A stretch of DNA of 53,191 nucleotides from an uncultured Methanosarcinales archaeon (lineage in GTDB: Archaea; Nanobdellota; Nanobdellia; Woesearchaeales; CAZPJY01): NCBI GenBank assembly GCA_964587045.1, contig CAZPJY010000009.1:1-53191 (forward strand), read 5' to 3'. The stretch's first letter is position 1; the number at the start of each line of letters is the position of its first letter. The notes beneath the pieces were generated by a model that saw only the letters and a program-made list of their open reading frames with translations, ran no database searches and was not told where the DNA came from. The position numbers were made by a program, and so were the translations under genes. Shown in pieces: positions 17,080 through 41,393 of the stretch.

Positions 17080-17117
17080 CCATTTACCAAAAGGCAACAC
17101 CTTAATATGTCTTTTTA

Positions 17118-17187
17118 TTACAACTATATGACACTATTTTATGCAGTAAATAAGTCATTTTTTACAACTCTATGTAATATTTACAAG
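17118..17187. promoter_or_regulatory. AT-rich divergent promoter with repeated candidate operator
   Basis: TTACAACTATATG (17118-17130) and TTACAACTCTATG (17162-17174), plus inverted repeat TGTAA-TAT-TTACA (17173-17185). Confidence 0.4.
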
Positions 17188-17223: not shown

Positions 17224-18516
17224 ATGATACCAGACGTCGTAAAGATCGAGCGCGAAGGCCGCCACTACCTGCTGTTCAACAGGAGGGGGATGGTGCTCGA
17301 GCTGACAGCGTGTGAGTACGCCATCTTCAAAGAGCATGCCGCAAAGAGGAGGTTTCCCAAGGAGCACGCGGAGTTCTTCAACAGGCTGTGCTGCTACGAG
17401 ATGACCTCATTCGAAGGTTACACCCCCAAGCCCGTCCGCGTCGAGTACACGCAAAAGCTGCTGGGTCACGACTCAGGCGAACCGCTGTTTGCTGCGCCCA
17501 TCGTCGCCCACCTGGGGATAACAGGAGCCTGCAACATGCGCTGCTCATACTGCTCGGTCCGGAAGCCGTACTCAGGCAAGGGCGAGCTTTCGAAAGATCA
17601 GTGGAAGACCGTGATAAGCAAGCTCTCAGAGATGGGCGCGTTCCAGATCGGGTTCACAGGAGGGGAGCCCACCCTGCACAACGACCTGGTCGAGCTGGCT
17701 CAGCACGTCACGCGCTGCGGCTGCACCTTCAACCTCACCACCAACTGCTGGAACCTGGACGAGGCGCTGGTCAGGCAGCTAAAGGAGGCAGGCATGCGGC
17801 AGTGCCAGGTCAGCCTGGACTCGCACGTGCCCCAGACCAACGACGAGCTACGCATGAGAGGCTGCTTCTCCCGCGTGCTCCGCGCCATAAGGATGCTGCA
17901 CAGGAACGGCATAACAGTAGGCATCGACTGCGTGCTCACGTCAAAAAACATAGGAGACATCCCAGGCTTCGTCACGTGGCTCTCGAGGATGCGCGTCGGC
18001 TACCTCACCCTCATCAAGGTCAAGCAGGGAGATCTCGACATTAGGACCTTTCGGTCCCTGCTGCCAGGGCACGAGGAGTACTCGAGGCTGCTGGACTTGC
18101 TCTGCAAGCGGAAGAACCAAAACCCGTGCGTGACGATCGACTGCGGCTCCGTCTGCAACCTCGAACAGGTCCTGCGGGACGGCGAGCTCACCCAGGTTCC
18201 CATCGCCGGCTGCCCGGTCGGCCACACCCTGCTCTCGATCGCGCCCAACGGCGACATATACCCCTGCGTAGCGCTGAGCCAGGAGCAGTTCAGGATCGGC
18301 AACGCGCTTTCCGACGACCTTAGAGATGTATGGCAAAACAGCCCCGCGCTGAGGCAGCTGCGGGAGGTAAAGAGCCGCATCAAGGGGAAGTGCTCATCCT
18401 GCAGGCGCCTGGACCACTGCAGGGGAGGATGCAGAGGCATCGCCCTCTCCCTTACCAAAGACCTTTGGATCAGCGACCCAACATGCGGAGGTGAACCACA
18501 TGGAAGTGAGAGCTGA
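17224..18516 (+). CDS. Radical SAM/SPASM protein with N-terminal RRE (PqqD-like) extension
   Basis: CNMRCSYC, FTGGEP, QVSLD; SPASM CPVG...NGDIYPC...CSSCxxxxxCRGGC...DPTC. About 65 extra N-terminal residues (YLLFNRRGMVLELT...FFNRL). Start at MIPDVV after GGGAG. Confidence 0.88.
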   Translation: MIPDVVKIEREGRHYLLFNRRGMVLELTACEYAIFKEHAAKRRFPKEHAEFFNRLCCYEMTSFEGYTPKPVRVEYTQKLLGHDSGEPLFAAPIVAHLGITGACNMRCSYCSVRKPYSGKGELSKDQWKTVISKLSEMGAFQIGFTGGEPTLHNDLVELAQHVTRCGCTFNLTTNCWNLDEALVRQLKEAGMRQCQVSLDSHVPQTNDELRMRGCFSRVLRAIRMLHRNGITVGIDCVLTSKNIGDIPGFVTWLSRMRVGYLTLIKVKQGDLDIRTFRSLLPGHEEYSRLLDLLCKRKNQNPCVTIDCGSVCNLEQVLRDGELTQVPIAGCPVGHTLLSIAPNGDIYPCVALSQEQFRIGNALSDDLRDVWQNSPALRQLREVKSRIKGKCSSCRRLDHCRGGCRGIALSLTKDLWISDPTCGGEPHGSES

Positions 18517-18574
18517 CAAGTTCCTGAGCGGGCACTACGCGTACTTCGCGGAGCTCCCCGAAAGGGAACAGTAA
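18500..18574 (+). CDS. Putative RiPP precursor peptide, 24 aa: MEVRADKFLSGHYAYFAELPEREQ
   Basis: Not in ORF track. Perfect SD GGAGGTGA (18487-18494) 5 nt before ATG; overlaps the end of rSAM-1 and lies between two SPASM enzymes; codons mostly end in G/C like host genes. Confidence 0.72.
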   Translation: MEVRADKFLSGHYAYFAELPEREQ

Positions 18575-18614
18575 AAAAAAACTGGGCGCCTGGGGGCAAG
18601 ACCCCCAAGGCCCC
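18573..18614. terminator. A-tract plus GC-rich hairpin between the peptide ORF and second radical SAM gene
   Basis: A9 (18573-18581), then GCC-TGGGGG-caaga-CCCCCA-a-GGC (18588-18611). Orientation and function uncertain. Confidence 0.45.
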
Positions 18615-18632
18615 TTCTAGGGAGGTATGAAA

Positions 18633-19643
18633 ATGCGCAAGCTAGTAGAGGTAGCCTACGAGATAACCCACCGATGCAACCTGCACTGCGCGCACTGCTA
18701 CCAGGGGCTGCCCAAAGAGGAGATGGGCTGGGAACAGATCGAGGACGCATTATCGCAGATGCACGAGATGGGTGTGGAAAAGCTCAAAATCGGAGGGGGC
18801 GAGCCCCTGCTGCACCCCCACCTCTTCGACGTGACCGACCGCGCGCTGGAGCTGGGCATGGAATGCGTGTTTTCCACCAACGGCATCCTGGTCGAGGACA
18901 GCCTGGAAGCCATGCTCGCACACCGCGTCGGCAAGGTGCAGGTCAGCCTGGACAACGTGGGCGAGAGGCACGACAGCTTCCGCGGACGCCAAGGTCTTTT
19001 CGAGATCGTCGACCGAGCGCTGTCCCTCCTATACGACGCCGGCATCTCAGTCAACGTCGCGACCACCCTCACAACGCAAAACCACCGCGATCTCGGACGC
19101 GTCCGGACCTACGTCGAAAAGAAAGGGGTGAAGCGTTGGAAGGTCCTCAAGTACATCCCCAAGGGGGCGGGCGACCCGCTGATGCTCGCGCCCGAAGACT
19201 ACCGCATCGCGGTCACAGCTCTTCTTGGCAGCCTGAAGCAGCCCAACGAGAATCCTGAAATCATCGTCGCCCGCGAGTTCGACCTCGTGCATGAGGATCC
19301 CGACTACAACGACATGCAATGCTTCGGAGGAAAGAGCTTCGCAAGCCTCAAGCCCAACGGCGACGTCTCTCCCTGCTCGTACCTCGACTTCGTCTGCGGC
19401 AACCTGACCGAAAGGCCCCTAAGGGAGATCTGGGAGGGCGCACTCATGGTGATGTTCTCGCGCGACCACGGCGACCCCTCCTGCGTGTGGAGGAAGCGGT
19501 GCAATGGGGGCTGCAAGGCGGTCGCCCACTACGTCACCCGCGAGTGGGGTTGCGACCCCTACTGCTGGGCGAAATCCAGCGAGTACCGCGCAAAGAAGTG
19601 GATGGAGTGCAGAGGCGGCACATTCATAAAGATGGGAAAATAA
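18633..19643 (+). CDS. Radical SAM/SPASM protein without N-terminal extension
   Basis: CNLHCAHC, GGGEPLL, STNG, QVSLD; SPASM-type CFGG...NGDVSPC...CxxxxxCNGGC...DPYC. SD GGAGGT (18621-18626) favours ATG 18633 over 18627. Confidence 0.88.
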   Translation: MRKLVEVAYEITHRCNLHCAHCYQGLPKEEMGWEQIEDALSQMHEMGVEKLKIGGGEPLLHPHLFDVTDRALELGMECVFSTNGILVEDSLEAMLAHRVGKVQVSLDNVGERHDSFRGRQGLFEIVDRALSLLYDAGISVNVATTLTTQNHRDLGRVRTYVEKKGVKRWKVLKYIPKGAGDPLMLAPEDYRIAVTALLGSLKQPNENPEIIVAREFDLVHEDPDYNDMQCFGGKSFASLKPNGDVSPCSYLDFVCGNLTERPLREIWEGALMVMFSRDHGDPSCVWRKRCNGGCKAVAHYVTREWGCDPYCWAKSSEYRAKKWMECRGGTFIKMGK

Positions 19644-25234: not shown

Positions 25235-26440
25235 TTATATTGATTGCGAATCAGCCAAGTTCTCGGCAAATTCCGGACCGATATCAACGTCTTCAGGCTC
25301 GAACCAGTAAGGGTTGCATTTTGAGGGGTCGTAGAAGACCAGGTTTCCGGTGAGCTCGCTTTGCTTGGCAGAATGGTAACGCAGCACCACCTCCCTGCTG
25401 TTCCTCGGATTGAGCCCCAGTATCTCCATCTTGCCGCCAGGAGTCGACATCGCATACCTAACCTTGTGGATGCCGGTGGTCATCTGGTTAAGCTCCTCGA
25501 CTATCCTCACACCATCGGCCAGTTTCACCTGCATGTCCCTGGAACCCATGACAGGACGGCACTGGAAGAGGTAATAGGGCCTCACGCCGTGCTTTGCGAG
25601 CTTTTCGAAGAGCTGATGCAGCACCTGCGCATCGTCGTTGATGCCTGCCAATAGCACTGTCTGGTTGTACATCTCGATGCCGTGCGACCTCATCAGTTCC
25701 AGCGCCCCTATGCTCTGCTCTGTGAGCTCGCGCGGGTGCTCATAATGTACGCACACGTGGACGCTCTTGCCTGATCTGTTTGAGAAATCTGCGAGGATGG
25801 CACAAAGCTCCTCGTCAATCCTTTGCGGGTAGAATGCCGCAACCGTGGTTCCGAAGCGGACTGTCCGGAGGTGGTTCAGCTGAGGACTGTCAAGGTATGA
25901 TAGCAGTTCCTTTATCGAGTCGTTGGCAAGCATCAGCGCGTCTCCGCCTGAGAGCAGGATGGTGTTTATCTCGCGGTGTTCCCTTAAGTATTCAAGTGCG
26001 TCATCGTTTGGGAAGGTGGTTTCTTTGGGCCCGTTTGCGTCCTTGATGAACAAACGCTTTCTGAAGCATTCCCTACAGAGCCCAGCGCAGGCGTTGCTGA
26101 TCAGCGCGAGCGCTGTTGGCGTGTACTTGTGCTGCAGTCCCGGAGCCTTGACGTTGATGCTCTCGCCGCTCGTGTCGAAGCATCCGTTCTCCTGGGACGC
26201 ACCTTCCATGTAGGATAAAAGTTCCTGCTTCGTGGGCAGTATGAGCGATCTGATTGGGTCCTTTCTGTGCTTAGGATTTATCAGCCCTGCGAAGTAGGAA
26301 TTGGTCAGGATTGGGAAGGCGATGCCGTGCCTGTCCCGGAAGGCTATCAGGTCTTGGACCCCTGGGAGGAGCCGAAACTGCTCAAGCCTCGTGAGAGGTG
26401 CCTTCATCTGCACATATTTTGGTCTAAATCGCATATCCAT
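25235..26440 (-). CDS. KamA-family radical SAM protein (lysine 2,3-aminomutase-like)
   Basis: GLQHKY, CAGLCRECFRKR, LLSGGDAL, HPREL, NQTVLLAGIND, PYYLFQC, GGK (PLP lysine position). Start uncertain (26440/26434). Confidence 0.88.
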   Translation of the reverse strand: MDMRFRPKYVQMKAPLTRLEQFRLLPGVQDLIAFRDRHGIAFPILTNSYFAGLINPKHRKDPIRSLILPTKQELLSYMEGASQENGCFDTSGESINVKAPGLQHKYTPTALALISNACAGLCRECFRKRLFIKDANGPKETTFPNDDALEYLREHREINTILLSGGDALMLANDSIKELLSYLDSPQLNHLRTVRFGTTVAAFYPQRIDEELCAILADFSNRSGKSVHVCVHYEHPRELTEQSIGALELMRSHGIEMYNQTVLLAGINDDAQVLHQLFEKLAKHGVRPYYLFQCRPVMGSRDMQVKLADGVRIVEELNQMTTGIHKVRYAMSTPGGKMEILGLNPRNSREVVLRYHSAKQSELTGNLVFYDPSKCNPYWFEPEDVDIGPEFAENLADSQSI

Positions 26441-26536
26441 CCCTGAAAAATAGCTATACAAAAAGGTAATATCGAGATATTTAAAAAAGTGCGGACTAAA
26501 ATTTTTAAAAAAATAAGGAAAATATTATAAATAATT

Positions 26537-27547
26537 ATGTTATTATTAAAAAACATGCCAAAAATTAACAAAGTTAAGCTTCATCAGCTTGACATGAAGG
26601 ACAGACGGATTCTCACCCTCCTCGACGAGGATTCCAGGCAGCACGACACTAAGATAGCCCGGGAGATCCAAAAGAGCCCCCAGTTCGTGCGTTACAGGAT
26701 ACTGCAGCTTCAAAAGAACGGAGTGATAATCGGCACCAATGCCGTAATCGACTATCACAGGCTGGGCCTGAGCAAGCACAGGCTCTACATCAAGCTACAG
26801 AACGCCTACCCAGAAAAGGTCGGGGAGATAGCGGCCTACTTCGTCACGAAACGGTCAACCAACTGGGTGGCCCAGCTGGACGGCAGCTGGGATCTCGGAG
26901 CGGTCTTCCTCCTGCCGCAGGCCTCGGATTTCATGGAGATCTGGAAAGAGTTCCGGACGAGGTTCGGCGAATTCATCAACTCGTACATGATGTCTATTAT
27001 ATATGAGTATGAGCTTTATCCCAAGAGGTTCCTCTACCCATCGGCAGAGCCCAAACCCCCTCTGGTTATCACCCAGGAGGGCGATAGGACGAGCCTCTCA
27101 AGGACGGAGCAGAGGCTCGTCACGCTTCTTGCAGGCGACTCGAGGCTCAGTCTCATAAGCCTAGCCAAGAGACTGGGAATAAGCTCGACCTCTGTCGCAG
27201 CCAAGATCAGGAAGCTGGAGCGGCAAGGCATCCTCCTAGGGTACAGGACCAACATCAGGTACAAGACCATCGAGCATTACCAGTACCGGATTAACGTCAC
27301 GCTCAACGACATGGGGGCAAAGCAGGCCCTGAAGCAGTACATGATCCAAAGGCCTGAGCTGGCGCAGATCCAGGAGGTGTACAACGGTGCTGACTTCGAA
27401 TGCTCTGTGATAATGAAGGGGCACAGCGAGTTCCTGAGCCTTATGGCAGATGTAGAAGAGCAGTTCAAGGCAAGCATAAGGACATTTACCTATTACAGGG
27501 TGGTCAGGTTCTACAAGTCGCAGTTCATGATAGGCGGATATGATTAG
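26537..27547 (+). CDS. Tandem (double) Lrp/AsnC-family transcriptional regulator
   Basis: Two HTH+RAM units: LDMKDRRILTLLDEDSR...RILQLQKNGVI and LSRTEQRLVTLLAGDSR...KIRKLERQGIL. Divergent from the KamA gene. Confidence 0.87.
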   Translation: MLLLKNMPKINKVKLHQLDMKDRRILTLLDEDSRQHDTKIAREIQKSPQFVRYRILQLQKNGVIIGTNAVIDYHRLGLSKHRLYIKLQNAYPEKVGEIAAYFVTKRSTNWVAQLDGSWDLGAVFLLPQASDFMEIWKEFRTRFGEFINSYMMSIIYEYELYPKRFLYPSAEPKPPLVITQEGDRTSLSRTEQRLVTLLAGDSRLSLISLAKRLGISSTSVAAKIRKLERQGILLGYRTNIRYKTIEHYQYRINVTLNDMGAKQALKQYMIQRPELAQIQEVYNGADFECSVIMKGHSEFLSLMADVEEQFKASIRTFTYYRVVRFYKSQFMIGGYD

Positions 27548-29279: not shown

Positions 29280-30056
29280 GTTCGGATGGGTCAATGCCAG
29301 ACGATTATAAAGGTAATGGCCCATCTTCTCTGCCGGCCAGATATTGCCGTTGATTCCATCAATAAGGGAGTTGACCTCGCTGATGAAATCAGAAAGTCTG
29401 GCGTTGCCAGTTTCCCTTGAGTATTTAGCAATCCTTTTGACTTTGAACAGCTCTTCTGATTCGAAGACATTCTGGCCACGGGTCATGACCAGGCGGAATT
29501 TTGGCTCATCGGGCGCGATACACCCCAGGTAGTCAGCAAGCTCTTTTGCGTGATTCATGAACAGTCCTAATGTCAGGTAACCATCAAGGATGATTTCGTT
29601 GTTGTTCTTCCAGGAGTTGAATAAACGGATATCATGATAGTACAGCGCGTTCTTCAGGCCTTCTCTGACCACTGAGGGGAGCGGGTCATAGCTTGATTCC
29701 GCATAAACGTTGAAAGGGTTGGGTATCAGTTTTCCAAGATCTGTATTCCTAATAAGGTAAGCGAGGTCGATGTCAGTCTTCTTCAGAACTTTTAGAATGT
29801 GCGCTTTTGGAACTTCTGCAATACGTGGATTGAATCCATGTGTAAATCTGATGTGATCAACATACTCGGCAATATGATGCGGATCATAATATTTTGATGC
29901 AGAACAATACGAGTATTTCACTATCTGCATTAGGCACGGCCGCACGTCGAAAACTGAAAGCTTCTTCTCCTTTTTCGGCTTTTTAGGAGCTTTCTGTTTA
30001 GGAGCTTCCTCGCCTGATGCGAATTCCAGATCCTTTCCTCTGATTACTTGGTTCAC
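29268..30056 (-). CDS. MoxR/vWA-operon paralog 3 (N-terminal tag family)
   Basis: GTG start in GTGA overlap with the upstream stop; begins (M)NQVIRGKDLEFASGEE. Confidence 0.75.
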   Translation of the reverse strand: MNQVIRGKDLEFASGEEAPKQKAPKKPKKEKKLSVFDVRPCLMQIVKYSYCSASKYYDPHHIAEYVDHIRFTHGFNPRIAEVPKAHILKVLKKTDIDLAYLIRNTDLGKLIPNPFNVYAESSYDPLPSVVREGLKNALYYHDIRLFNSWKNNNEIILDGYLTLGLFMNHAKELADYLGCIAPDEPKFRLVMTRGQNVFESEELFKVKRIAKYSRETGNARLSDFISEVNSLIDGINGNIWPAEKMGHYLYNRLALTHPNLAR

Positions 30057-30826
30057 GCGCCCCACTTGGTTTTGTACTCTCTCTTTACCCTTTTGAAATC
30101 CTCAAGCATCGGCATCAGAGCTGTTATGTTGTAAAGCCTTGCGAACTTGGTGAGGGACTCTAGGCTAGGCATGGATTTCGTTATGATCTGCTCAATATCA
30201 TCCTTCCACCGCTTATCACAGGATTCAGTCTTTGTTATTTCCAAATCGTCGTTGTCAATTCCGACCTTGATAGCCAGAGCCATCATCGGGCGGTATTCAA
30301 TCTTCATGTCCATGACGTAGACGAGAGGGTGATACGTGGTTATTTCTCGCCTGGTGACCAGCAGGTCTCTTTGCATCTTCTCAAGATCCGGTATGAGCGA
30401 AAACAGGTACTCCTTGTTGGACAGGTCATCATCAATGCTTTTTACTATGTCTGTTTCCAGTATGTAGTCGTCCCCTACCAGCTCGCGGAGCATCTGGACC
30501 AGGTGCTTCTTTTCTATGGTCCTGCTCCAAACCACGCTGTGATGTATCCCATTGTTATAAGCTAATGGTTCGATATCGAAGAGGTAAATACCTGAGTACC
30601 TGACGGCATTTTCATATTTCGGGCTCCAGTCTGCCCCACCAGTTTGGCCCGGCACAAGACCCTGAAAGTATTTCACCAGGAAGTCCCCGATGACCTTTCC
30701 GCCTTCCTCCCATATCTTGCCGAGGCCGCTTTCAGGCTTTTTCTCCTCGACTTCTGGAGTCTCCTCTTTAGGGACTTCTTCGCCAGATGCGAATTCCAGG
30801 TCCTTTCCCTTGATTACCTTGTTCAT
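29997..30826 (-). repeat. Two copies of a 60-bp 5' coding segment (29997-30056 and 30767-30826)
   Basis: Hand alignment gives 50/60 identical nt, including shared GATGCGAATTCCAG. Encodes the N-terminal tag of paralogs 2 and 3. Confidence 0.85.
30053..30826 (-). CDS. MoxR/vWA-operon paralog 2 (N-terminal tag family)
   Basis: ATG 2 nt after the upstream stop; begins MNKVIKGKDLEFASGEE. Confidence 0.78.
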   Translation of the reverse strand: MNKVIKGKDLEFASGEEVPKEETPEVEEKKPESGLGKIWEEGGKVIGDFLVKYFQGLVPGQTGGADWSPKYENAVRYSGIYLFDIEPLAYNNGIHHSVVWSRTIEKKHLVQMLRELVGDDYILETDIVKSIDDDLSNKEYLFSLIPDLEKMQRDLLVTRREITTYHPLVYVMDMKIEYRPMMALAIKVGIDNDDLEITKTESCDKRWKDDIEQIITKSMPSLESLTKFARLYNITALMPMLEDFKRVKREYKTKWGA

Positions 30827-30828
30827 GC

Positions 30829-31566
30829 TTACCACATGTTTTGATAGTCTAATACCCTGCTGTTGATGTCCTCGATGATCGTCCGCAGTTGCCTTACCCC
30901 GTACCTCTTGGCCTCTTGGGCTAGCAGGGTGAGGGGCACCGTCGCGTTGGATACCTGAGAGATCCTGTCCGCATGATTGAAAGGCTCTCCCCGCATCATA
31001 CCGCTCTGCAGGCCTTCCCTGATTGCCACCGCGACAAGAGGCCTGTTCTCAGGCTCAAGCCCCATGCACAGTATGTAAGGGTGCACTGAAATCCCCTGCT
31101 TGGTGGAACCGGCCAGAAGTTTCGTGGCTGCTGTGAAACTGGGTATTATCTCATCGATGTTAGGTTCGTCTCCTATCAGGTCAGTGTTGTTGATTTCGTC
31201 GCCATACACGCTTTCCAGCACCTTGAATAGGAACTGGTAGTTCGGCATTATTATATCCACATTTTGTGAGGCTCTTTCTGGTGACCGGCTCCAGGCAGGA
31301 TATATTTTCAGGACGAAGGGCCCCATCCTCGTAATGAACTCCTTCATCGACGGTCCTAGGTTCCGTCCCCATGACTTATTGTTCAGATTGCCTTCGAAGT
31401 AGTCCACCAGAGCTTCACCCAGGTATTCCTGTGCGTCCTTGATGAGGTTCAGACCGCTTCTGGTCTGCCGACTGACAGTCTCCTCCAAGGATGATTCCTC
31501 CTGTCGGGGTTCCTTATTTTCAGAGCTGAAGTCCAGCTCCTCGTTCGATCTTATAACCTTGCCCAT
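30829..31566 (-). CDS. MoxR/vWA-operon paralog 1 (N-terminal tag family)
   Basis: TGATG overlap with the vWA gene; begins MGKVIRSNEELDFSSE; body aligns by eye with paralog 2. Confidence 0.78.
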   Translation of the reverse strand: MGKVIRSNEELDFSSENKEPRQEESSLEETVSRQTRSGLNLIKDAQEYLGEALVDYFEGNLNNKSWGRNLGPSMKEFITRMGPFVLKIYPAWSRSPERASQNVDIIMPNYQFLFKVLESVYGDEINNTDLIGDEPNIDEIIPSFTAATKLLAGSTKQGISVHPYILCMGLEPENRPLVAVAIREGLQSGMMRGEPFNHADRISQVSNATVPLTLLAQEAKRYGVRQLRTIIEDINSRVLDYQNMW

Positions 31567-33743
31567 CAGCTGTCACCGGTGTATTTGATCAGCACTTCGC
31601 CCAGCACCTTCTCGACGTCCTTGACAGATCCGACTATCCTTCCCTGGACGTTTGGGTGCTTTGACGCTAAATTTTGGATATGTGAATAGTATGAACCTCC
31701 TGATCTTACGCCTATGAAGAGGATGCTCCTGTCCGGCTTGTTGGCTATCTCCTCGATCTTCCTCATGTTGCCTGACACATCACCTGTTATATCGCCGTCT
31801 GAGACTATTGTGTAGACTGCCTTGCCGTGCTTGACGTCCTTTTCGCACTTGTCAAAAACCGACGTCTTGATGGCCGTGCCGCCCCACTGGGGGATCAGCT
31901 GGACCTTCTTGAAGAAGCTTGAGTGGTCCTTGTACACCGACTCGAGGTCGAATACGCCTGAGTAAACGGTCGAGTTGGAGAACTGCACCGCCCCGACGTT
32001 GACTGGTATGCCCATTTCCTTTGCGACCGGGTAGATTGCCTTCATCCACCCGTAGTCTATCCTGTTGAGCTGGTCGAACTTGTTCTCTGAGCCGAGGTAG
32101 CCTGAGCTGCTGGACTTTCCTCCTTCATTCATGCTCCCTGAGACGTCGTTGAACATGAACCAGTACTCAGGCAGTTCTATCCCCGACTTCTCATAGTTGA
32201 TGGCCCTCACAGGTATTTCATTGACTTTGTATTCGTAGTAGTAGGTAAGGTTGGTGGCCTTGTCGTGCCTGAGCATGGGTATGCCTGACGCCTGCTGCAG
32301 CGCTAGTATGTGCTTGATGTTGAAAGTTGCCAGGTCACTTGGCGTGAGCAGGTGGGTTGTCTTGTAGACGAGTATCTTCCGGTTGCCCAGGTTCTTTGAT
32401 ATCACTCGTGTGTGCGGGCTCCTCAGCTTGATGGGAACAGCGTTCTGCCTGTAGAACTCGTCAGCAGCCTGCACCGCGAGGTCTAGCTTGACCTGCTTGC
32501 CTGACGGCTCGCCTGCGCCGTTGCCTCCCGGGCTTGGAGTGCTTCCTCCTGACAGCTCCTGCTGGGCCGCGTTGGCCACTTCCGTGAGAAGGCTCTGCGC
32601 TTCGCTCTCGTCGCCTTCCTCAGCCAGCGCTTCCAATATGTTGGCCAGGGCTTCGCTTGCGTTGCCGCCTGTTCCTCCCATCGAAAAACGGCCCTCTTCC
32701 TGCTGCGTGGAGATGAGGTCTGCGAAGGACTGCACGAAACCCCTGAACAGGTCGTAGCGCAGCTGGTCCTTCTCAAGCATGGTCATCATAGTGCTCAGGG
32801 CTGTGTCGCGGGCAGCTAGGTAGTTGCCCTCGCCGTCGAACAGCGAGTCCACCGCTTTCAGGTAATCGTCCCTGTTAAGGTTATAAGCCTTCATTGCCTT
32901 AGCGTCGATTTCCTTTACCACGCCTTCCAACGCATCCTTCGCCCTGTTTTCCGGGTCGAATCTACCTGACGCTGCCTGCTGCGCCTTCTTCTCAAACAGC
33001 TTGTTCACGTTCTCCCTGACCTCTTCGTCGTTGATGAACAGCTTTCCGTAAAGTATCCGCGACAGTGGGTATGTGGGTGAAGGCTGGCTTCTGGAGTGGT
33101 GGAACTCGACTATGTCCCATATCGGGACGACCGCGTCCGGAAGGTTGCGGATGTTTTCCTGCAGCAGCTTCACTGCTTCCCTGCCGTACACCGTCTCAAT
33201 AGATTTCGGGAGAGTGATGTCCATCTCCTTCATGGCATAGAAGGTGCAGTCGTCCCCGAAATCGTGTATCAGGTTCCTGATGTTACCCACCTTCCTGAGT
33301 ATGTCCGCCCTGTTGCCAGGTGCTGCCTCCTTGATACCCCTGTACAGCGCTAGGTCGATTCTTTTTGCGTCCTTCCTTCCCCTGGGGATGTCCGTGTCGT
33401 GGATCATCTCGTGGAAGAACAGGTAGACAAAGTTGTCGCGTGCCAGGCTCTCCACCAGCTCTTTTTCGTCCTTGCGGCCGGGAACAGCGCTGTTGCCGTA
33501 CAGCTTTGCGATCCTTTCCCTTCCGAACAGCGGTATTACTGCCTTGATTAAGCCCTCCTCAATCGCCTTTGGGTCATTGATTTGTGCGATGTATTTGGAG
33601 TGGTCGTTTGCAAAGAGCCACATGTGACCGCCCTGCTGGGGCTTCTTGTCGACAGGCCAGTCCTTGCGAAGCGGGTTCTCCAAGGTGATGATCTTCCTGA
33701 AGAGACCCTCTGCACGGTCCAGCTGTTCGCGTATGATGCTCAT
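31566..33743 (-). CDS. vWA-domain protein with N-terminal HExxH metallopeptidase-like motif
   Basis: FFHEMIHD near the N-terminus, Gly/Ser-rich linker, MIDAS FNDVSGSM ... GGT ... IVSDGD. Confidence 0.82.
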   Translation of the reverse strand: MSIIREQLDRAEGLFRKIITLENPLRKDWPVDKKPQQGGHMWLFANDHSKYIAQINDPKAIEEGLIKAVIPLFGRERIAKLYGNSAVPGRKDEKELVESLARDNFVYLFFHEMIHDTDIPRGRKDAKRIDLALYRGIKEAAPGNRADILRKVGNIRNLIHDFGDDCTFYAMKEMDITLPKSIETVYGREAVKLLQENIRNLPDAVVPIWDIVEFHHSRSQPSPTYPLSRILYGKLFINDEEVRENVNKLFEKKAQQAASGRFDPENRAKDALEGVVKEIDAKAMKAYNLNRDDYLKAVDSLFDGEGNYLAARDTALSTMMTMLEKDQLRYDLFRGFVQSFADLISTQQEEGRFSMGGTGGNASEALANILEALAEEGDESEAQSLLTEVANAAQQELSGGSTPSPGGNGAGEPSGKQVKLDLAVQAADEFYRQNAVPIKLRSPHTRVISKNLGNRKILVYKTTHLLTPSDLATFNIKHILALQQASGIPMLRHDKATNLTYYYEYKVNEIPVRAINYEKSGIELPEYWFMFNDVSGSMNEGGKSSSSGYLGSENKFDQLNRIDYGWMKAIYPVAKEMGIPVNVGAVQFSNSTVYSGVFDLESVYKDHSSFFKKVQLIPQWGGTAIKTSVFDKCEKDVKHGKAVYTIVSDGDITGDVSGNMRKIEEIANKPDRSILFIGVRSGGSYYSHIQNLASKHPNVQGRIVGSVKDVEKVLGEVLIKYTGDS

Positions 33744-35638
33744 CAGTTGTTCCTCCCTAATGTCCTTGGAAGCCTTTGGATGTATACTCCGGGGAAGGTG
33801 ACGGTGCCTATCTTGTCCCTCTTTTCAACATATATCTTGCCCAGCTCCTCGAAGACCGATCCGACCAGTCCTTTGGACCCCTTGCCTGCGAGCTTGGAGA
33901 GTCTCTGGTCTATCGTGCCCTTGTATTTGTCCATGAATCCGGCGAGCGTGGCGAGGTCAGAAGCGCTGTGGTTTATGATCAGGCGCCTCACCTGGCTCCC
34001 GTTGTCGAGGGACTGCATAGATGACATCTGTGAGTAGAGGTTCTTGATGATCGTGTCGACGTTAAAGGAGTCGGAATGCTTGGCGGAGTGGAGAGCCTTC
34101 TTTATTGCCAGATTCTTGATTCCGCTGTCAGGGTCGTCCATCGAAAATTGTCTGCTGGTGTCGCTGAAGAGCTTCTGCTCGTACTCTGTCGCGAGTTTGG
34201 TGTATTCGATGATGGTCGTATTGATGGCATTCAGCGGTTCCTTTCCGGGCTGGCCGTCCTTGTTCTTGGCCAGTATTGCGGCGGCTATCGAGACGTCGTC
34301 GACTTGGAGCGTGTCCTCGTTTTTGAGGTAGGCCTCGAACGGGTCATCCAAATTGAACACCCGCATGATCTCCTTGATGGTGGATATCACGTCACCGAGG
34401 TCCTGCAGCTGGGCTATGTCCCTGGGCACTATCGTGGTGTTGAACTTGACTATCCCCTCGAGCACCTGCAGGTCGTTGTCGGTTTCGTCGATCGCCTGCA
34501 GGGCCGGAGCTGTCACCTGGTATTTGGGTCCCAGCACTTTAGTCCTGTTTTCCACAGTCTGGGCATCTACTGCCGCGGTCTGCTTGAGATCACCAGACAG
34601 CACCTGTACAAAGAGGTCGCCCAGTTCCAGCGCCGAGTAGTATATGTTCTTGTCGGTGCGCCTCGGATCGAGTGTATAGGCGTATATCGAAAGCCAATCC
34701 CTATCCACCTCTGAGTAGATTTCGTCCTTCTCCATCCCGAAGATGTTTGATACTACCTCACACCACTTGTCAAGCATCCTCTCATACTGGTGGTCCTGGC
34801 CGTTCGCGAGCCAAATAGAGGTTCCGAAGGCCTTGGCGGCGTTGGGCACCTGTTCCTTGATCATCCTGTTGAGCGAGGCTGCGTCGAGCTCCTGACTCTG
34901 GGTGAATTTTGCGTCGACGCTCGCCGGCGGGTTGGTCGAGCAGGTTACCTGGACCTTCTTCTTCCTGCGAGTGTCCTGGATTCCTTCGTTGGTGAGCTCT
35001 GGTACGTACGGCCCGATATCTGCCTTCTGGTGGCCTGCGGTGTCTATGCGCGCCTCTATGATCTGCATCATGGCCTGTGAGTCGCCCCTGCTTGCCTCGT
35101 CGATGTGGATGCGAGCCGTCTTGTCCAGGGCTTCGTGCTGGATTACGGTTTCGAAGTTGCCGTCCTCATCGACCCTGGTCTTAACGAAGTATGAGAGCAG
35201 GTTGTTCTGCATCGGGTTTCCCGAAAGCCTGACGTTTTGGTAGTTGTCAGGTGCCAGCACGGTCTTGTTGTACTCCTCAGCTGCAAAGGTCTTGCCTGCG
35301 CCTGTATCTCCCATCTGCAATATCTGCGTGCTTCGCATGTCGAAAGCCACGAGGAAGTCGATTGCCTTCATGTCGAGAGCTCCATCGACCTCTTCAGGGC
35401 AGTACCCATTCCGTTCCTTGAACATCAAGGTGTTGGTATCCGGGTCGTACCGTGCATGGAATATGGAATTGGGCCAGACCTGAGACGCCATCGTGTCGTA
35501 TACCGCTTCGATGAATCCGATCAGACTTGCGGTGTACACATTCTTGTCAACCTCGACGAGCTCGGTTATGCCCATCTCCCGGACCTTGTCCGCTATTTTG
35601 TCTAGAGTGTGTTTTGATAAGGTGGATTTAGTTGCCAT
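33743..35638 (-). CDS. MoxR-like AAA+ ATPase with long C-terminal extension
   Basis: Walker A GDTGAGKT, Walker B IHIDEASR, sensor STNP, LDAASLNR arginine finger. Coupled to the vWA gene; SD AGGAGGAG. Confidence 0.82.
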   Translation of the reverse strand: MATKSTLSKHTLDKIADKVREMGITELVEVDKNVYTASLIGFIEAVYDTMASQVWPNSIFHARYDPDTNTLMFKERNGYCPEEVDGALDMKAIDFLVAFDMRSTQILQMGDTGAGKTFAAEEYNKTVLAPDNYQNVRLSGNPMQNNLLSYFVKTRVDEDGNFETVIQHEALDKTARIHIDEASRGDSQAMMQIIEARIDTAGHQKADIGPYVPELTNEGIQDTRRKKKVQVTCSTNPPASVDAKFTQSQELDAASLNRMIKEQVPNAAKAFGTSIWLANGQDHQYERMLDKWCEVVSNIFGMEKDEIYSEVDRDWLSIYAYTLDPRRTDKNIYYSALELGDLFVQVLSGDLKQTAAVDAQTVENRTKVLGPKYQVTAPALQAIDETDNDLQVLEGIVKFNTTIVPRDIAQLQDLGDVISTIKEIMRVFNLDDPFEAYLKNEDTLQVDDVSIAAAILAKNKDGQPGKEPLNAINTTIIEYTKLATEYEQKLFSDTSRQFSMDDPDSGIKNLAIKKALHSAKHSDSFNVDTIIKNLYSQMSSMQSLDNGSQVRRLIINHSASDLATLAGFMDKYKGTIDQRLSKLAGKGSKGLVGSVFEELGKIYVEKRDKIGTVTFPGVYIQRLPRTLGRNN

Positions 35639-36734: not shown

Positions 36735-38282
36735 ATGAGATTCAAGAGGATTGCCCTGTTATCTAACATCGCCCTATTCTTGCCCCTGCTCGCGAGTCTC
36801 GTTTATGCAGGGTTCACAGACCCTATCAGCTCTGTGCTAAGCGTCTTCGGCGACTTCAACGTCTATGACATCTACCAAAACTACTGGGGCATCATCGACT
36901 TCATCCTCTACCTTATCATCTTCATTGGCCTGTCGCAGCAGACCCTGGGCAGAAGGTTCCAGGGCCGCGCCTCCTCGTCAATATCCACTGGAATCGGCAT
37001 CGCGCTCGCGATAGCAGCTGCATTCGGCGCCAGGCAGTTCAACTTCAGGCTTGGCGACATGGCGCCCATCGCCCTCCTCATCTTCATCCTGCTCATCGCG
37101 ATGGAGATGGCATACGTCACCCACAGGCTCATCGGCGACTGGAAGCCGGCCATCGCCGCAGCCTTCCTGCTCACCTACTTTGCCATCAACGCTGTCGCGC
37201 CGTTCATCATGGACTGGCTCAGGGAGCGCGTCCCCTTCATAGCGAGCGTGTTCTCAATCCTCGTCATAATCGCGCTGATATCGGTCTTCGCCTTCGTGCT
37301 GAAAATCAGGAGGAGCGGAGGCGGAGCGACCATGGGTGACGTGGCCAGGGGGGCCAAGAGCGGCTGGAGGACAGGCAGGGACGAGCACGCAGCAAAAGTT
37401 GCCAGGAAGAAAGCCCTCAAGCAGGAGGACGAAGCCAATAAGGATGATGAGTTGAGCACGAAGCTCACAGCAGCGGAGATTGCAGCGTTGAATGCAGAGA
37501 GGGGGCCTGAGCATGAAGCGTGGGAAGAACTTCGCAGGGAGAAGTGGGACGTCGACAGGATCAAGGAGATCGTCCAGCGGGTGGATCAGGCTGAAGAGCT
37601 CATAAACCAGTACCAGCAGAAGGTAGACGCCGCACACGAAGACGCCCGCAAGCACGGCATGAACGATGAAAGGAGGGAACTCATCAAACGCGCTGAGGCG
37701 TACATCGGACAGCTTAAGGATCACAAGATGCAATTGGAAAAAGCGGCTAGCCAACCTGTGGCCGACTCCGCAGTACAACAGGGTAAAAAGGAGAAGGAGT
37801 CAGAGAAGCTCCAAGAGCTAGACAAGCGGGCGCTCAAGATTGCAGAGATGGACAAGGATGCTCTGGAGGAGGAGATAAAACATCTTAACAAAGAGCTCAA
37901 CGCAAGGGCGGATGAGCTCAGGAATGAGGGCGTAACAGATTACTCTTCCGATGAGAAAATGAAGCACCTTCAATCACGCATTGCCCTCCTTAACATCGCA
38001 ATAAGGGATATAAGCAAGGTAGTTGACGACGACAAGCGTCAGATACTGCTTGACAAGATGGAAAGGAAACTCGAAAGAAAAGAGCACAAGGATATCGTCG
38101 AGATGTACGCTTTGTTCAATGATATGAACAACCCGAGTAGGGAGGAAGCGGCAATCCACAAACTAAAATCAACAATCGGCGACCTCGACAGCGAAGTAAT
38201 AAAAGAAGCCAAGGTTGAACACGAGAAAAAAGAGTCCACTGAAAACGCTACAGAAGAATCCAAAAACGCTCAAAAGAAATAA
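36735..38282 (+). CDS. Polytopic membrane module + coiled-coil tail (array member 1)
   Basis: IDFILYLIIFIGLSQQTLGRRFQGR module, then a charged helical C-terminus. Confidence 0.78.
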   Translation: MRFKRIALLSNIALFLPLLASLVYAGFTDPISSVLSVFGDFNVYDIYQNYWGIIDFILYLIIFIGLSQQTLGRRFQGRASSSISTGIGIALAIAAAFGARQFNFRLGDMAPIALLIFILLIAMEMAYVTHRLIGDWKPAIAAAFLLTYFAINAVAPFIMDWLRERVPFIASVFSILVIIALISVFAFVLKIRRSGGGATMGDVARGAKSGWRTGRDEHAAKVARKKALKQEDEANKDDELSTKLTAAEIAALNAERGPEHEAWEELRREKWDVDRIKEIVQRVDQAEELINQYQQKVDAAHEDARKHGMNDERRELIKRAEAYIGQLKDHKMQLEKAASQPVADSAVQQGKKEKESEKLQELDKRALKIAEMDKDALEEEIKHLNKELNARADELRNEGVTDYSSDEKMKHLQSRIALLNIAIRDISKVVDDDKRQILLDKMERKLERKEHKDIVEMYALFNDMNNPSREEAAIHKLKSTIGDLDSEVIKEAKVEHEKKESTENATEESKNAQKK

Positions 38283-38324
38283 TCCAAACCTTTAAATATC
38301 CTTTTCCCCAATTTCTCGACTTAG

Positions 38325-39959
38325 ATGAAGCGATTAGGCCAGATTAACCTATTTCTGTTGCCAATCCTAGCTACTGCCGTAGCCGGTGGGGGAACAGACC
38401 CCATATCCAGTGTTCTATCAGTCTTCAGGAACTTCAGCCTCCCAAACGTCTACCAGGGCAACATCGCTCACTTCATCGACTTCATAATCTACCTGATAAT
38501 ATTCATCGGCCTCTCGCAGCAGACCCTGGGCCGCAGGTTCGAAGGGCGTGGCGGCTCCGCACTGACGACAGGCATGGGTTTGGCATTAGGCATAGCCGCA
38601 GCAGTCGCAGAGTACTACTTCGACTTCGTGCTGGGGAACCTCGCTCCGTTAGCTCTTGCCATACTCATCATAGTCGTGTCAATCATGCTCTTCACAGTCC
38701 TACTGGCCCTCGGGCTTGATAAATTCACAGCGACTTCAACGACCTATGTCACAATGTACTTCATGTTCTTCGCTGTCGCGCCTGAATATTTCGACTGGAT
38801 GAGGCAGCAGTCGAACGCGCTCCTCGGAATCCTGTCCATAATCCTCCTAATCGCTATATGGCGCATGTTCCAGGGATTGTGGTACGCTTTCAGGCCGCAT
38901 ACAGAAGGCGCAGGAGAAGGTATCGCCAACAGGCTGAGCAACCTGGATAACCGTGACACCACAGATTACGGCTCATTCGCCGACGACTACAGGGAGGCAA
39001 GACAGAAGAAGCAGGAAGATGTCGAAGATCTCGAGAAGAAGCGTCGGTTCGAGCACATCAACAAGGTAGAGGACGCCGCGTTCAACGACATCAGGACAGC
39101 GGTTGCCGAATGCAAGCACTACATCATGAACATCATATCGTACAACCAGAAACCAACGCCCGAGATCTACGACACCATATTCAGCTACGTGGCAAAGATC
39201 AGATCGCTTTTCAGGGACAGGATAAATGAGATAACAGAGGAGAGGAAGCAGCACCTGAAGGAGCTCAAGCAAAGTGCCGATACAGACATCAAGCGTCTTG
39301 AGAAATTGCTCAAAGGCAACAAAAAGGAAGGAAATATCGAAGGTAAGGAGTCCCGCAAGGCTGAGGAACAAAGAGATATAATCAACGAGGAGATGAAGAA
39401 AGCCAGGAGTATAACATACGATAAAGCCAGAGAGAAAATACTTGCTTACCTTGATCGCATCGACAAGGAGCTAAAGGAAGTCGAGCAAGAAGCGAAGCAG
39501 ATGAAGGAGCTCACCCTCAGAGTTATCAACTCAACGCCTGCCTGGATTGATTTCCACAGGCAAATGAGCCTGCGCCTCATGTCTTACTTGGACCATTTCA
39601 AGAGTCTGGAAAAAAAGCACCAAACCATCAGCAAGATATTGAACATGCTTGAAAACGTCCTGAAGGACCTGGAAAAGATGCCCCTCTCCCAAAGGCAAGT
39701 GCAAGTGGTCAAGGAGGAGTTCGAGGCGCTAGAAGGACACATCACAGACATCCAGACCGCGCTGAGGAAGGTCAGGGAAGTCGAGTCCGTAGAGTTCAGG
39801 TCAAAGGAGCAGGAGTTCGAACGCCTAACCAAAGAGCTCGAGCGGTGGAGCGCCCGGAAGTACCAGCTTGCTAGCCGTATCAAGACTGTTAAAAAAGCTC
39901 TTAAGAAAGATCTTGAGCAAGTCAAGGAGCAAGCAGAAAAAGATGAGTCACAGCTTTGA
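38325..39959 (+). CDS. Polytopic membrane module + coiled-coil tail (array member 2)
   Basis: IDFIIYLIIFIGLSQQTLGRRFEGR module and a different charged helical tail; own TTTAAATA box near 38291. Confidence 0.78.
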   Translation: MKRLGQINLFLLPILATAVAGGGTDPISSVLSVFRNFSLPNVYQGNIAHFIDFIIYLIIFIGLSQQTLGRRFEGRGGSALTTGMGLALGIAAAVAEYYFDFVLGNLAPLALAILIIVVSIMLFTVLLALGLDKFTATSTTYVTMYFMFFAVAPEYFDWMRQQSNALLGILSIILLIAIWRMFQGLWYAFRPHTEGAGEGIANRLSNLDNRDTTDYGSFADDYREARQKKQEDVEDLEKKRRFEHINKVEDAAFNDIRTAVAECKHYIMNIISYNQKPTPEIYDTIFSYVAKIRSLFRDRINEITEERKQHLKELKQSADTDIKRLEKLLKGNKKEGNIEGKESRKAEEQRDIINEEMKKARSITYDKAREKILAYLDRIDKELKEVEQEAKQMKELTLRVINSTPAWIDFHRQMSLRLMSYLDHFKSLEKKHQTISKILNMLENVLKDLEKMPLSQRQVQVVKEEFEALEGHITDIQTALRKVREVESVEFRSKEQEFERLTKELERWSARKYQLASRIKTVKKALKKDLEQVKEQAEKDESQL

Positions 39960-40031
39960 CTCCTTAACCTATTTCTCCTCTATAAGCAATCCAAACATTT
40001 TTATAGGAGTAAAAGCAAAATATGGACTATT

Positions 40032-41393
40032 ATGGATAAATACCGCACAAACCGTGCGCTCAAGCTAGTTTTACCTTTGATAGTTCTATTTTCGAGCATC
40101 CCAGCGGCGCTCGCAGACATCTACGGCTGGCTGTACGCGTGGCAGAGGATAGACTTCGGCTCCTTCTACATGAGGGCTGCAGGCTTCGTGGACTTCTTCG
40201 TCTACCTGCTCATATTCCTGGGGCTAGCCCAGTTCACCTTCGCAAGGCTCTATGAGGGCAGGTCCGGAAAGGCAGTTGCGATCGGAGTGGGCACAGCCCT
40301 TGCGATAGGGGCGGTAGTGGCAGAGTCGATGTTTGGCTTCAACCTGGGCTCGCTTGCCCCGATAGCCGTCATCCTTATCATAATCCTTCTGGGAATCGTC
40401 GTCTTCATGCTCTTCAAGAGCATGGACATTTGGACTGGTGCAGCGCTCTCGTGGACCTACATGATCATGTACTTCATATCCAAGGCAATGTTCCCCGGCT
40501 TCTGGGCCTGGATGTACTCGACCCAGTACGGGCGCGGCCTTGACGGACTGCTGGGCATCGCGCTGCTGCTTGCGATTTGGCGTGGCATCCAATCTGTCTG
40601 GATCGGTTTCAGGGTCGAGGACCCGGACAAATCGCCGCCAGACCCATACAGGGATCCAGAACCGTTCCCTGCAGACGATACACCTCGCCAGCCCAGGCAG
40701 AAGAAGTACCTGCCCAGGCCTCCCATGAACCTGAAGGCCATGCCCAATCCCGAAACAGGCCAGATCGAGGTGTCGTGGCAGCCTACTCCCAGCTCCGACA
40801 ACGTCAACCTCTACGAGGTCTACCGGATGCCCGGGCGCTCCAAGCAAAAGAAGTTCGAGCAGGTGGGATACGCAGAGCCGCCAAGCACGAGGTATGTGGA
40901 TGAGATAGTCCAGCCGGGAGAGAAGTACACCTACTACATCAGGGCCGTAAACGAGTTCGGTAGGAGCAACCCGTCAAATTATGATCACGCGACAGTCCCT
41001 GACCGGCCCGGACCGTCACCTCCACACAAGCCCACAATTGAGCCCGACGTCGCGAACAACAGGCTGCTGGTCAGCTGGAAGCCGAGCGACAAGGCTGGAG
41101 AAGAGCATGTCGTAGGCTACGAAGTCTTCAGGTTCCCAAACAGCAAGCACAAAGAAGAGTACGCCCAGGTACCAAAGGAAAAAGATGTCCTCAAAGGGAA
41201 TGAATATCACGATTCCAACGTCAAGAGAGGTATCACATACAGCTATAGGGTGAGGGCTGTAGACAAAGAGGACAGGAGGGGAGGCTTCAGCGACCACGAG
41301 GAAGGCACGCTCCCTGGAGTCCCCGACCTGACACCGAAGCTTCACATCAAGCACGGGGAGAATGAAGTAGTGCTGAGCGGAAAACTAGAATGA
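40032..41393 (+). CDS. Polytopic membrane module + two fibronectin type III-like domains (array member 3)
   Basis: VDFFVYLLIFLGLAQFTFARLYEGR module; PPMNLKA...VSW...YEVYR...YTYYIRAVN and a second copy ...YSYRVRAVD. Confidence 0.8.
   Translation: MDKYRTNRALKLVLPLIVLFSSIPAALADIYGWLYAWQRIDFGSFYMRAAGFVDFFVYLLIFLGLAQFTFARLYEGRSGKAVAIGVGTALAIGAVVAESMFGFNLGSLAPIAVILIIILLGIVVFMLFKSMDIWTGAALSWTYMIMYFISKAMFPGFWAWMYSTQYGRGLDGLLGIALLLAIWRGIQSVWIGFRVEDPDKSPPDPYRDPEPFPADDTPRQPRQKKYLPRPPMNLKAMPNPETGQIEVSWQPTPSSDNVNLYEVYRMPGRSKQKKFEQVGYAEPPSTRYVDEIVQPGEKYTYYIRAVNEFGRSNPSNYDHATVPDRPGPSPPHKPTIEPDVANNRLLVSWKPSDKAGEEHVVGYEVFRFPNSKHKEEYAQVPKEKDVLKGNEYHDSNVKRGITYSYRVRAVDKEDRRGGFSDHEEGTLPGVPDLTPKLHIKHGENEVVLSGKLE

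Follow-up and report, generated by a model that had tools for sequence, protein, structure and literature searches.

Radical S-adenosylmethionine (SAM) enzymes acting on peptides that are made by the ribosome and modified after translation (RiPPs) regularly bring to light new bond-forming chemistry; the present analysis concerns a three-gene cassette that very probably represents an undescribed family of such systems: two radical SAM/SPASM enzymes, denoted A and B below, and a 24-amino-acid (aa) peptide encoded between them, all within a 53,191-nucleotide (nt) stretch of archaeal DNA (contig CAZPJY010000009.1; the whole stretch is referred to as the window) from a genome of 1.6 Mb that is 100% complete. 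The precursors of pyrroloquinoline quinone (PQQ) and mycofactocin are recognizable by their motifs, ExxxY in PqqA and IDGxCGVY in MftA, and several known systems (HxsB/HxsC, ScmE/ScmF, thuricin CD, RumC) likewise pair two radical SAM enzymes with one peptide. The layout of A, i.e., a RiPP recognition element (RRE) followed by radical SAM and SPASM domains, is that of SuiB/StrB (streptide; PDB 5V1T; TIGR04080), for which the accessible part of PMC6231123 describes a peptide that does not contact the RRE and two fully ligated auxiliary clusters, the thioether-forming CteB having an open site. Triceptide synthases (HtkB, HaaB, YhhB, ChlB) cross-link aromatic-X-X motifs from ring to C-beta, according to the accessible text of PMC11499958, and DynA, the dynobactin enzyme, joins His-Tyr and Trp-Asn, according to that of PMC10288494.

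The three genes follow one another on the same strand (Table 1), flanked by a divergent DnaQ-like exonuclease gene and a convergent beta-propeller gene (Pfam search), and what characterizes radical SAM/SPASM RiPP systems is largely there: both enzymes give Radical_SAM and SPASM matches above the Pfam cut-off and carry the CxxxCxxC radical SAM motif along with conserved SPASM cysteines, a short peptide is encoded beside them, and a leader-binding RRE is predicted by modelling. An earlier note, made from the sequence alone, had pointed to this open reading frame (ORF) between two co-oriented radical SAM/SPASM genes, which reads as it described, and to a perfect Shine-Dalgarno (SD) sequence in front of it; the SD is in place, but the ORF is not free-standing, as it shares its first 17 nt with the 3' end of A, whose stop is at 18516. 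As the SD sits in the last codons of A, coinciding with those for Gly-Gly-Glu, it could be a product of chance on its own, and with both the ORF start and the SD lying within the end of another gene it was conservation that had to decide whether the peptide is real.

Judged by its conservation, the coding constraint on it and its travelling together with enzyme A, the 24-aa ORF is a real gene. Loci were gathered from metagenomic and genomic DNA, the 30 rows with an A ortholog being reduced to 21 once duplicates had been collapsed by eye, and the conserved small ORF with a GHYxY-like core that the earlier note had suggested looking for was present at 18 of these (27 of 30 before collapsing). 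Two of the remaining three are on contigs that end inside A (L030 and L031), and the third, L028, with 430 nt available upstream, belongs to a basal subclade. Of 145 further radical SAM loci (1.17 Mb), none had the peptide, no match there exceeding 10.8 bits, while all seven genome loci outside the first alignment of 11 peptides had the motif. A profile in which the window peptide itself is included scored 57.6 bits at the window site; the runner-up in a six-frame search of all 1.6 Mb reached 12.2. At L180, the peptide gene lies upstream of both enzymes and has its own SD, so that the peptide is not a by-product of the tail of A. GAGGT precedes 16 of the 18 peptide genes (by eye), though the tail of A differs, and, in a crude test, 166 of the 1308 long ORFs in the genome holding the window; the C-terminal tails of several A orthologs are the peptide read in a shifted frame. 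Third codon positions are the most variable ones in pairwise comparisons, the mismatches at the three positions numbering 158/115/472 within the closest clade and, when all pairs are counted, 1103/836/1827.

Protein databases yielded 31 matching peptides (24–72 aa), and a search of 1.84 billion representatives gave 22 matches, all of 24–66 aa; no Pfam or NCBIfam family matches these peptides. The core can be written as G-H-Y-x-[YF]-[FLY]-x-x-L-P-x-R, with G11, H12, Y13 and L19 invariant in 40 of 40 distinct peptides (21–72 aa), P20 kept in 38 and R22 in 36; position 14 is A, S or C, position 15 Y or F, and position 16 F, L or Y. Four peptides found later, which bring the natural variants to 44, keep GHY, with Glu at position 14 in one and Ile at position 19 in two. 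The H-Y-A-Y-F core singled out earlier thus falls within the conserved part, but conservation spans residues 1–22, Gly11 and L-P-x-R included, followed by a free C-terminal tail of 0–50 aa, while the leaders vary between clades. Trp occurs at none of the 24 aligned positions across the 40 peptides, and Cys at core position 14 is seen in two of the 40 (two of the three bacterial-type peptides have Cys).

Enzyme A forms a well-delimited family, with about 107 of the 120 matches listed at 38–63% identity followed by a sharp drop in score. Its structure model (predicted local distance difference test, pLDDT, 93) has SuiB as its best PDB fold match (E 1e-19, template modelling score 0.68 over 466 columns); all eight SPASM cysteines align with those of SuiB and are kept in 80–81 of 81 A-family sequences, and the barrel residues that touch the peptide in the model (H96, Q141, Q195, D235, T262, T304 and D306) are invariant in all 81. 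The basal subclade (L028; P0095, P0104, P0105) differs at six peptide-contact barrel positions, and at L028 an AAA_28-like gene stands directly downstream of A in place of the peptide; this subclade may be a sister system with another precursor. One protein, P0067 (685 aa), joins a truncated A with an incomplete SPASM to a full B, which could reflect either a deletion or a misassembly.

The N-terminal extension of A had been taken for an RRE in the earlier note, and the fold comparison, at the level of models, agrees: three strands and two helices are predicted, the middle helix of a typical RRE being reduced to a loop, and against 48,161 chains (VIA) the top matches are mostly RREs at Z 4.4–6.1. 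These comprise (Z/root-mean-square deviation/aligned residues) TigE at 6.1/3.3/68, lasso B1 at 5.5/3.0/63, TbiB1 at 5.4/3.2/64, MibB at 5.3/2.2/59 and PbtF at 4.6/2.7/63, together with McbB (Z 4.4); the ESM atlas adds one cluster with 25% PqqD at 0.90, as a lead only. Modelling of peptide and enzyme together, also proposed beforehand, gave 0.77 for the L017 ortholog with residues 1–32 of its own peptide, compared with 0.02 for the best control; among solved complexes 116 of 157 come up to the former mark, and among mismatched pairs 2 of 215. At least 82% of contacts recur between runs, and the partner pLDDT is at least 62. In this model, leader residues 2–6 lie along strand beta-3 and pair with A residues 22–26 and 73–76, and the interface reaches on to radical SAM barrel residues. 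As similar complexes have been solved, the model shows likeness rather than binding, and it is as a prediction from modelling that the RRE-like domain of A is said to bind the peptide leader.

Enzyme B, predicted to begin most likely at 18633 (SD at 18621–18626; the database protein is of 336 aa), has some 28 matches at 37–55% identity before a sharp drop. It lies downstream at 10 loci and upstream at 8, L028 has a partial B-like SPASM gene upstream, and the contig of L098 ends just 3' of the peptide gene. As B is not at every locus, A and the peptide are the core and B the usual partner, which amends the two-enzyme cluster proposed earlier. The window-type B is without one Cys of a CxxC pair and has an extra Cys before DPYC. 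The claim that the N-terminal extension is confined to the first enzyme fits the window pair, but the bacterial-type B carries an extension of its own. In L020 only, a third radical SAM gene (L020:2747-3568) lies directly 3' of B.

None of the 25 best NCBIfam models shown per enzyme reaches its cut-off for either A or B, and the same is seen for five orthologs; the best scores of A are to GeoRSP, MftC and PqqE, and the top model of B is AhbD (137 bits). SuiB shares with A, besides the layout and the eight cysteines, a short aromatic-bearing precursor, yet the structural-alignment identity is 18%, A scores 82.8 bits with TIGR04080 against a cut-off of 500, the Lys-x3-Trp (KxxxW) of streptide is absent from the peptides, a second radical SAM gene is usual here, no transporter is conserved, and the model places the leader on strand beta-3 of the RRE, unlike in SuiB. 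Since the SPASM cysteines of A match those of the fully ligated SuiB, A would, by analogy, favour non-thioether chemistry. H-Y-x and Y-x-[YF], aromatic-X-X motifs that overlap each other, are found in 40 of 40 peptides, as in triceptide precursors, though this is a weak match as such motifs are common; ChlB is distantly similar to A (37.7 bits), and, in contrast to triceptides, the core here is single and unrepeated, the leader very short, the RRE fused and the cross-link putative. Dynobactin has its His and Tyr spaced as H-x-Y, whereas the two, both invariant, are adjacent in the peptide here, which also has no Trp; with the DynA model (NF041298, cut-off 450), A scores 91.3 and B 67 bits.

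With PqqE and MftC, the best sequence matches of A, the cassette also shares a precursor of about 24 aa and the lack of an exporter. The scores are 149.6 against 381 bits (TIGR02109) and 152.8 against 265 bits (TIGR03962), ExxxY is absent from the peptides, as are IDGxCGVY and a C-terminal GVY (the C-terminus being variable), the RRE is fused to A, and no pathway partners are conserved at A loci. Among the systems with two radical SAM enzymes, SynChlorMet is distant (ScmE 116 and ScmF 84 bits, each against 400), and HxsB/HxsC are not among the 25 best models, the peptides here having no repeats and mostly no Cys, even if His-x-[A/S/C] recalls the His-Xaa-Ser systems described in the accessible part of PMC9062424. 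A sactipeptide or ranthipeptide is rejected on the lack of a conserved Cys (2 of 40 peptides) and on A keeping all eight SPASM cysteines. The earlier statement that the peptide resembles neither PqqA, MftA nor a sactipeptide precursor stands. Viperin is rejected as well, PADLOC having given generic barrel matches only (pVip at 77–90 bits over the barrel only). The peptide motif is not in the supplements of PMC9062424 or PMC10288494, as far as these are accessible, and the literature searched holds no description of the cassette, the radical SAM RiPP atlases in subscription journals having been beyond reach; as the accessible part of PMC10288494 lists some 14,550 enzymes by UniProt id only, enzyme A may sit unnamed in that compendium.

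Taken as a RiPP family, the cassette probably cross-links aromatic residues, by analogy with the enzymes above. The RRE-like domain of A would bind leader residues 2–6 along strand beta-3, as modelled, with the rest of the conserved peptide entering the radical SAM barrel; there the 5'-deoxyadenosyl radical would, by analogy, abstract a side-chain hydrogen, C-beta of Tyr/Phe15 or of residue 14 being the most likely site, and the radical carbon might then be joined to the His12 or Tyr13 ring in a cross-link of -2 Da. Given a RiPP, such a bond in the manner of SuiB, the triceptide synthases or DynA is, by that analogy, only slightly favoured. The exchange of Tyr and Phe at position 15 suggests that a hydroxyl is unneeded there, Tyr13 being fixed. 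B would make a second change on the same peptide, which is reasonably likely, and general proteases would trim the unconserved tail and probably the leader; as no exporter is conserved, the product probably remains intracellular.

Several points weigh against this interpretation. The peptide profile was built from the same loci, which makes their scores circular, and many of the peptide loci are related to one another. The RRE Z-scores of 4–6 are middling, and 2xdv, a chain that is no RRE, also reaches 5.5; Foldseek, run on the N-terminal domain of A, gave no match at E<=0.001 (TbiB1 ranked first), and the Pfam PqqD domain was not detected in any of 17 A N-terminal domains, with scattered weak matches only. 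The modelled complex is that of the L017 pair and not of the window's own 24-mer, and its pass may partly reflect memory of solved RRE-leader complexes (SuiB, CteB). The position of the cross-link is not readable from sequence or model data. In G650, an 89% complete genome, A and the peptide were found with no clear B, the best B-like match having E 6e-55 compared with 3e-97 to 5e-130 for true partners, while the other B groups are 22–27% identical to the B of the window, and the downstream and upstream groups, each well supported, join at 78 in a quick tree. Finally, as the earlier note had remarked for this locus, no protease or exporter is adjacent: at the examined A loci no protease, transporter/exporter or immunity gene is conserved, and it is only at L027 that an M20 peptidase and a GNAT lie near the cassette.

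The cassette is rare and patchy in distribution: it occurs in two of 400 other genomes of the order, three of 400 in the class sample, and six of 240 genomes of the sister order (two of which are common to the class sample). It had been thought of as archaeal, which holds in part only, as members of the A family come from Woesearchaeota/Nanoarchaeota, from Portnoybacteria of the candidate phyla radiation (CPR) and from gut Clostridia. Close A homologs are labelled Nanoarchaeota or Woesearchaeota, and on these labels rests the placement of the genome among DPANN archaea. The A of L024–L026 corresponds to a cluster that bears the label Ca. Portnoybacteria, and the A of L027 is similar to P0081, whose label, Ca. 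Scatovivens, is that of a Clostridia genus (both by eye); L023, without a label, groups with L024–L027 in a quick tree. Bacterial genome contexts are thin, amounting to three loci. An A ortholog is absent from the 60 nearest relatives (best match 33% identity), and a search of genome contigs with a single A protein returned one unrelated locus at 25% identity. As the best-scoring match in viral contigs was 29% identical, among at least 87 confirmed stretches, and plasmids gave only matches of PqqE/MftC level to A, these searches give no sign of a mobile carrier. A small-genome archaeal group keeps an Fe-S-costly peptide-maturation pathway that it shares with some bacteria, and two enzymes with a 22-residue conserved peptide make up a complete, small and testable set that fits no curated family and whose invariant Gly-His-Tyr core has no match among the systems found in the searches made here. 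Mining strategies that depend on a transporter or on a precursor already annotated would overlook such a set.

The pathway, furthermore, is apparently under a regulator with a predictable operator. A divergent 280-aa helix-turn-helix (HTH) protein lies within four genes at 8 of 18 archaeal-type loci; both its atlas features and its structure make it TrmB-like, with no convincing Pfam match. In the genome holding the window, the TrmB-like regulator is on contig C5 (G000:C5:5282-6136), and, as the regulator is also present in 10 of the 60 cluster-free relatives, it is not dedicated to the cassette. An operator matrix of paired 12-mers at 42–45 bp spacing was derived from the promoters of the regulator (10, from 9 cluster-free genomes), the genome holding the window and a split gene being excluded (total 192, compared with 124–144 for five shuffled sets). 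In 8 of the 10 archaeal cluster promoters, that of the window included, it scored above all 60 shuffles, as it did in none of the three bacterial ones. It failed at L181 (6 of 60 shuffles as high), at L022 (53 of 60) and at the three bacterial loci, and the promoter of the regulator itself in the genome holding the window is marginal (2 of 60 shuffles as high). Of 97 sites in the genome, the one in the window comes out on top, by a small difference (21.9 compared with 21.7) and on an AT-rich background, and the test is not independent for loci that adjoin the regulator. The paired repeat upstream of A is, on sequence grounds, a predicted TrmB-like operator, regulator binding being inferred from it. 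NrtR, a Nudix-type regulator, stands directly upstream at two of the three bacterial-type loci (L025, L027), and expression is probably set by the TrmB-like regulator in archaea and by NrtR in bacteria.

Some observations on these regulators stand on their own. The regulator on C5 is 1.6 kb from genes (C5:7771-11980) that look by eye like those of nicotinamide adenine dinucleotide (NAD) salvage: a Nudix-containing protein, NAD synthetase, nicotinamidase and nicotinate phosphoribosyltransferase. L182–L193 represent an uncatalogued DPANN family of TrmB-like regulators with a paired 12-bp operator, whose neighbours are often nucleotide-handling-like by eye (AAA_28, MazG-like, HIT, HD, Nudix). The archaeal genome holding the window also has an NrtR-like regulator (G000:C21:19830-20516), with 38–42% identity to the NrtR proteins encoded upstream of the bacterial clusters.

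What, then, might the peptide be, if not the precursor of a cross-linked product of the kind proposed? In the main variant, itself a RiPP and compatible with that reading, it would be the precursor of a small PQQ- or mycofactocin-like molecule that serves as cofactor or signal inside the cell and is linked to nucleotide or NAD status: a few residues (His12-Tyr13) would be joined and excised, and B would process them further. The precursor is indeed short, its tail dispensable and an exporter wanting, the best NCBIfam scores of A are to GeoRSP, MftC and PqqE, NrtR is directly upstream in L025 and L027, the neighbours of the TrmB-like regulator in cluster-free genomes have the nucleotide-handling look mentioned above, and NAD-salvage-like genes lie close to it in the genome holding the window. 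Yet no peptidase, oxidase or client dehydrogenase is conserved at the loci, the scores are far below the cut-offs (153 against 265 for MftC, 150 against 381 for PqqE) with neither precursor motif present, and the neighbours of a regulator do not define a product. An intracellular cofactor or signal built from His and Tyr by unseen chemistry (e.g., an adjacent His12-Tyr13 bond, or one from the Gly11 C-alpha to an aromatic ring, finished by B), kept in small-genome lineages of both domains under two unrelated nucleotide-sensing regulators, would be the boldest form of it; either wording is a distinctly tentative, rather unlikely proposal.

Less probable still, and in our view doubtful, is that the peptide is a small partner or regulatory subunit sitting on the RRE-like domain of A, with A and B acting on another protein or on a small molecule such as a nucleotide. 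The lack of a protease or exporter would suit this, as would AAA_28 (nucleotide-kinase-like) genes at three loci by Pfam and two more by eye, radical SAM and kinase pairs being seen in prokaryotic viperin systems (PADLOC model names). The modelled interface, however, extends beyond the RRE to barrel-lining residues; pVip covers the barrel only, whereas A has a full SPASM; and RiPP precursors typically combine invariant aromatics with a free tail. AAA_28-like genes also stand opposite the regulator in the cluster-free L183 and L186 (by eye), so that they may follow the regulator. Housekeeping heme enzymes of the AhbC/AhbD/NirJ type with a chance ORF at the end of A are scarcely credible, even with AhbD as the top model of B, some database labels reading "AdoMet-dependent heme synthase" and the SD coinciding with Gly-Gly-Glu codons, since scores reach at most 137 bits against cut-offs of 500–650 (500 for AhbD), the ORF is conserved across domains and movable upstream, and neither ALAD nor an AhbA/B-type domain was found in the complete genome (controls were positive in 11 and 3 of 14 genomes), which disfavours heme synthesis; the firm clustering with AhbC/AhbD/NirJ that the earlier note had named as a refutation is not seen.

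Table 1. Position of the cassette and its associated features within the window.
Feature	Position	Strand	Basis and remarks
Enzyme A: RRE-like domain, radical SAM and SPASM; predicted dedicated maturase	17224..18516	+	430 aa; Pfam, homologs, structure model
RRE-like N-terminal domain of A (about residues 1–63)	17224..17412	+	Secondary structure, fold matches
Shine-Dalgarno GGAGGTGA of the peptide gene	18487..18494	+	Inside the last codons of A, 5 nt 5' of ATG
Precursor peptide gene, 24 aa	18500..18574	+	Leader of about 10 residues, G-H-Y-A-Y-F core (18530–18547), L-P-x-R follower
GC-rich hairpin between the peptide gene and B	18584..18614	+	Inverted repeat; weak candidate for an attenuator or stabiliser
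Enzyme B: radical SAM/SPASM without N-terminal extension; usual partner	18633..19643	+	336 aa; Pfam, homologs, alignment, tree
Paired direct repeat, predicted operator for the TrmB-like regulator encoded on contig C5	17118..17173	+	12-mers at 17118–17129 and 17162–17173, 44 bp apart

The start adopted for A matches those of its orthologs, although the open frame itself opens at 17107, and the hairpin 3' of the peptide gene has a folding z-score of -1.36, which is not significant. Elsewhere in the window, a KamA-like radical SAM gene is divergent from a tandem Lrp/AsnC-type regulator, with dUTPase-like and MsrA/MsrB-like genes near (25235–27547; all by eye), and a co-oriented group at 30053–35638 comprises, by eye, a MoxR-like AAA+ ATPase, a VWA-domain protein and two small uncharacterised genes. 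At 36735–44650, three adjacent genes encode a similar N-terminal membrane domain followed by coiled-coil/fibronectin-like regions, and a 1086-aa protein comes after them; the whole looks like an array of surface-protein paralogs.

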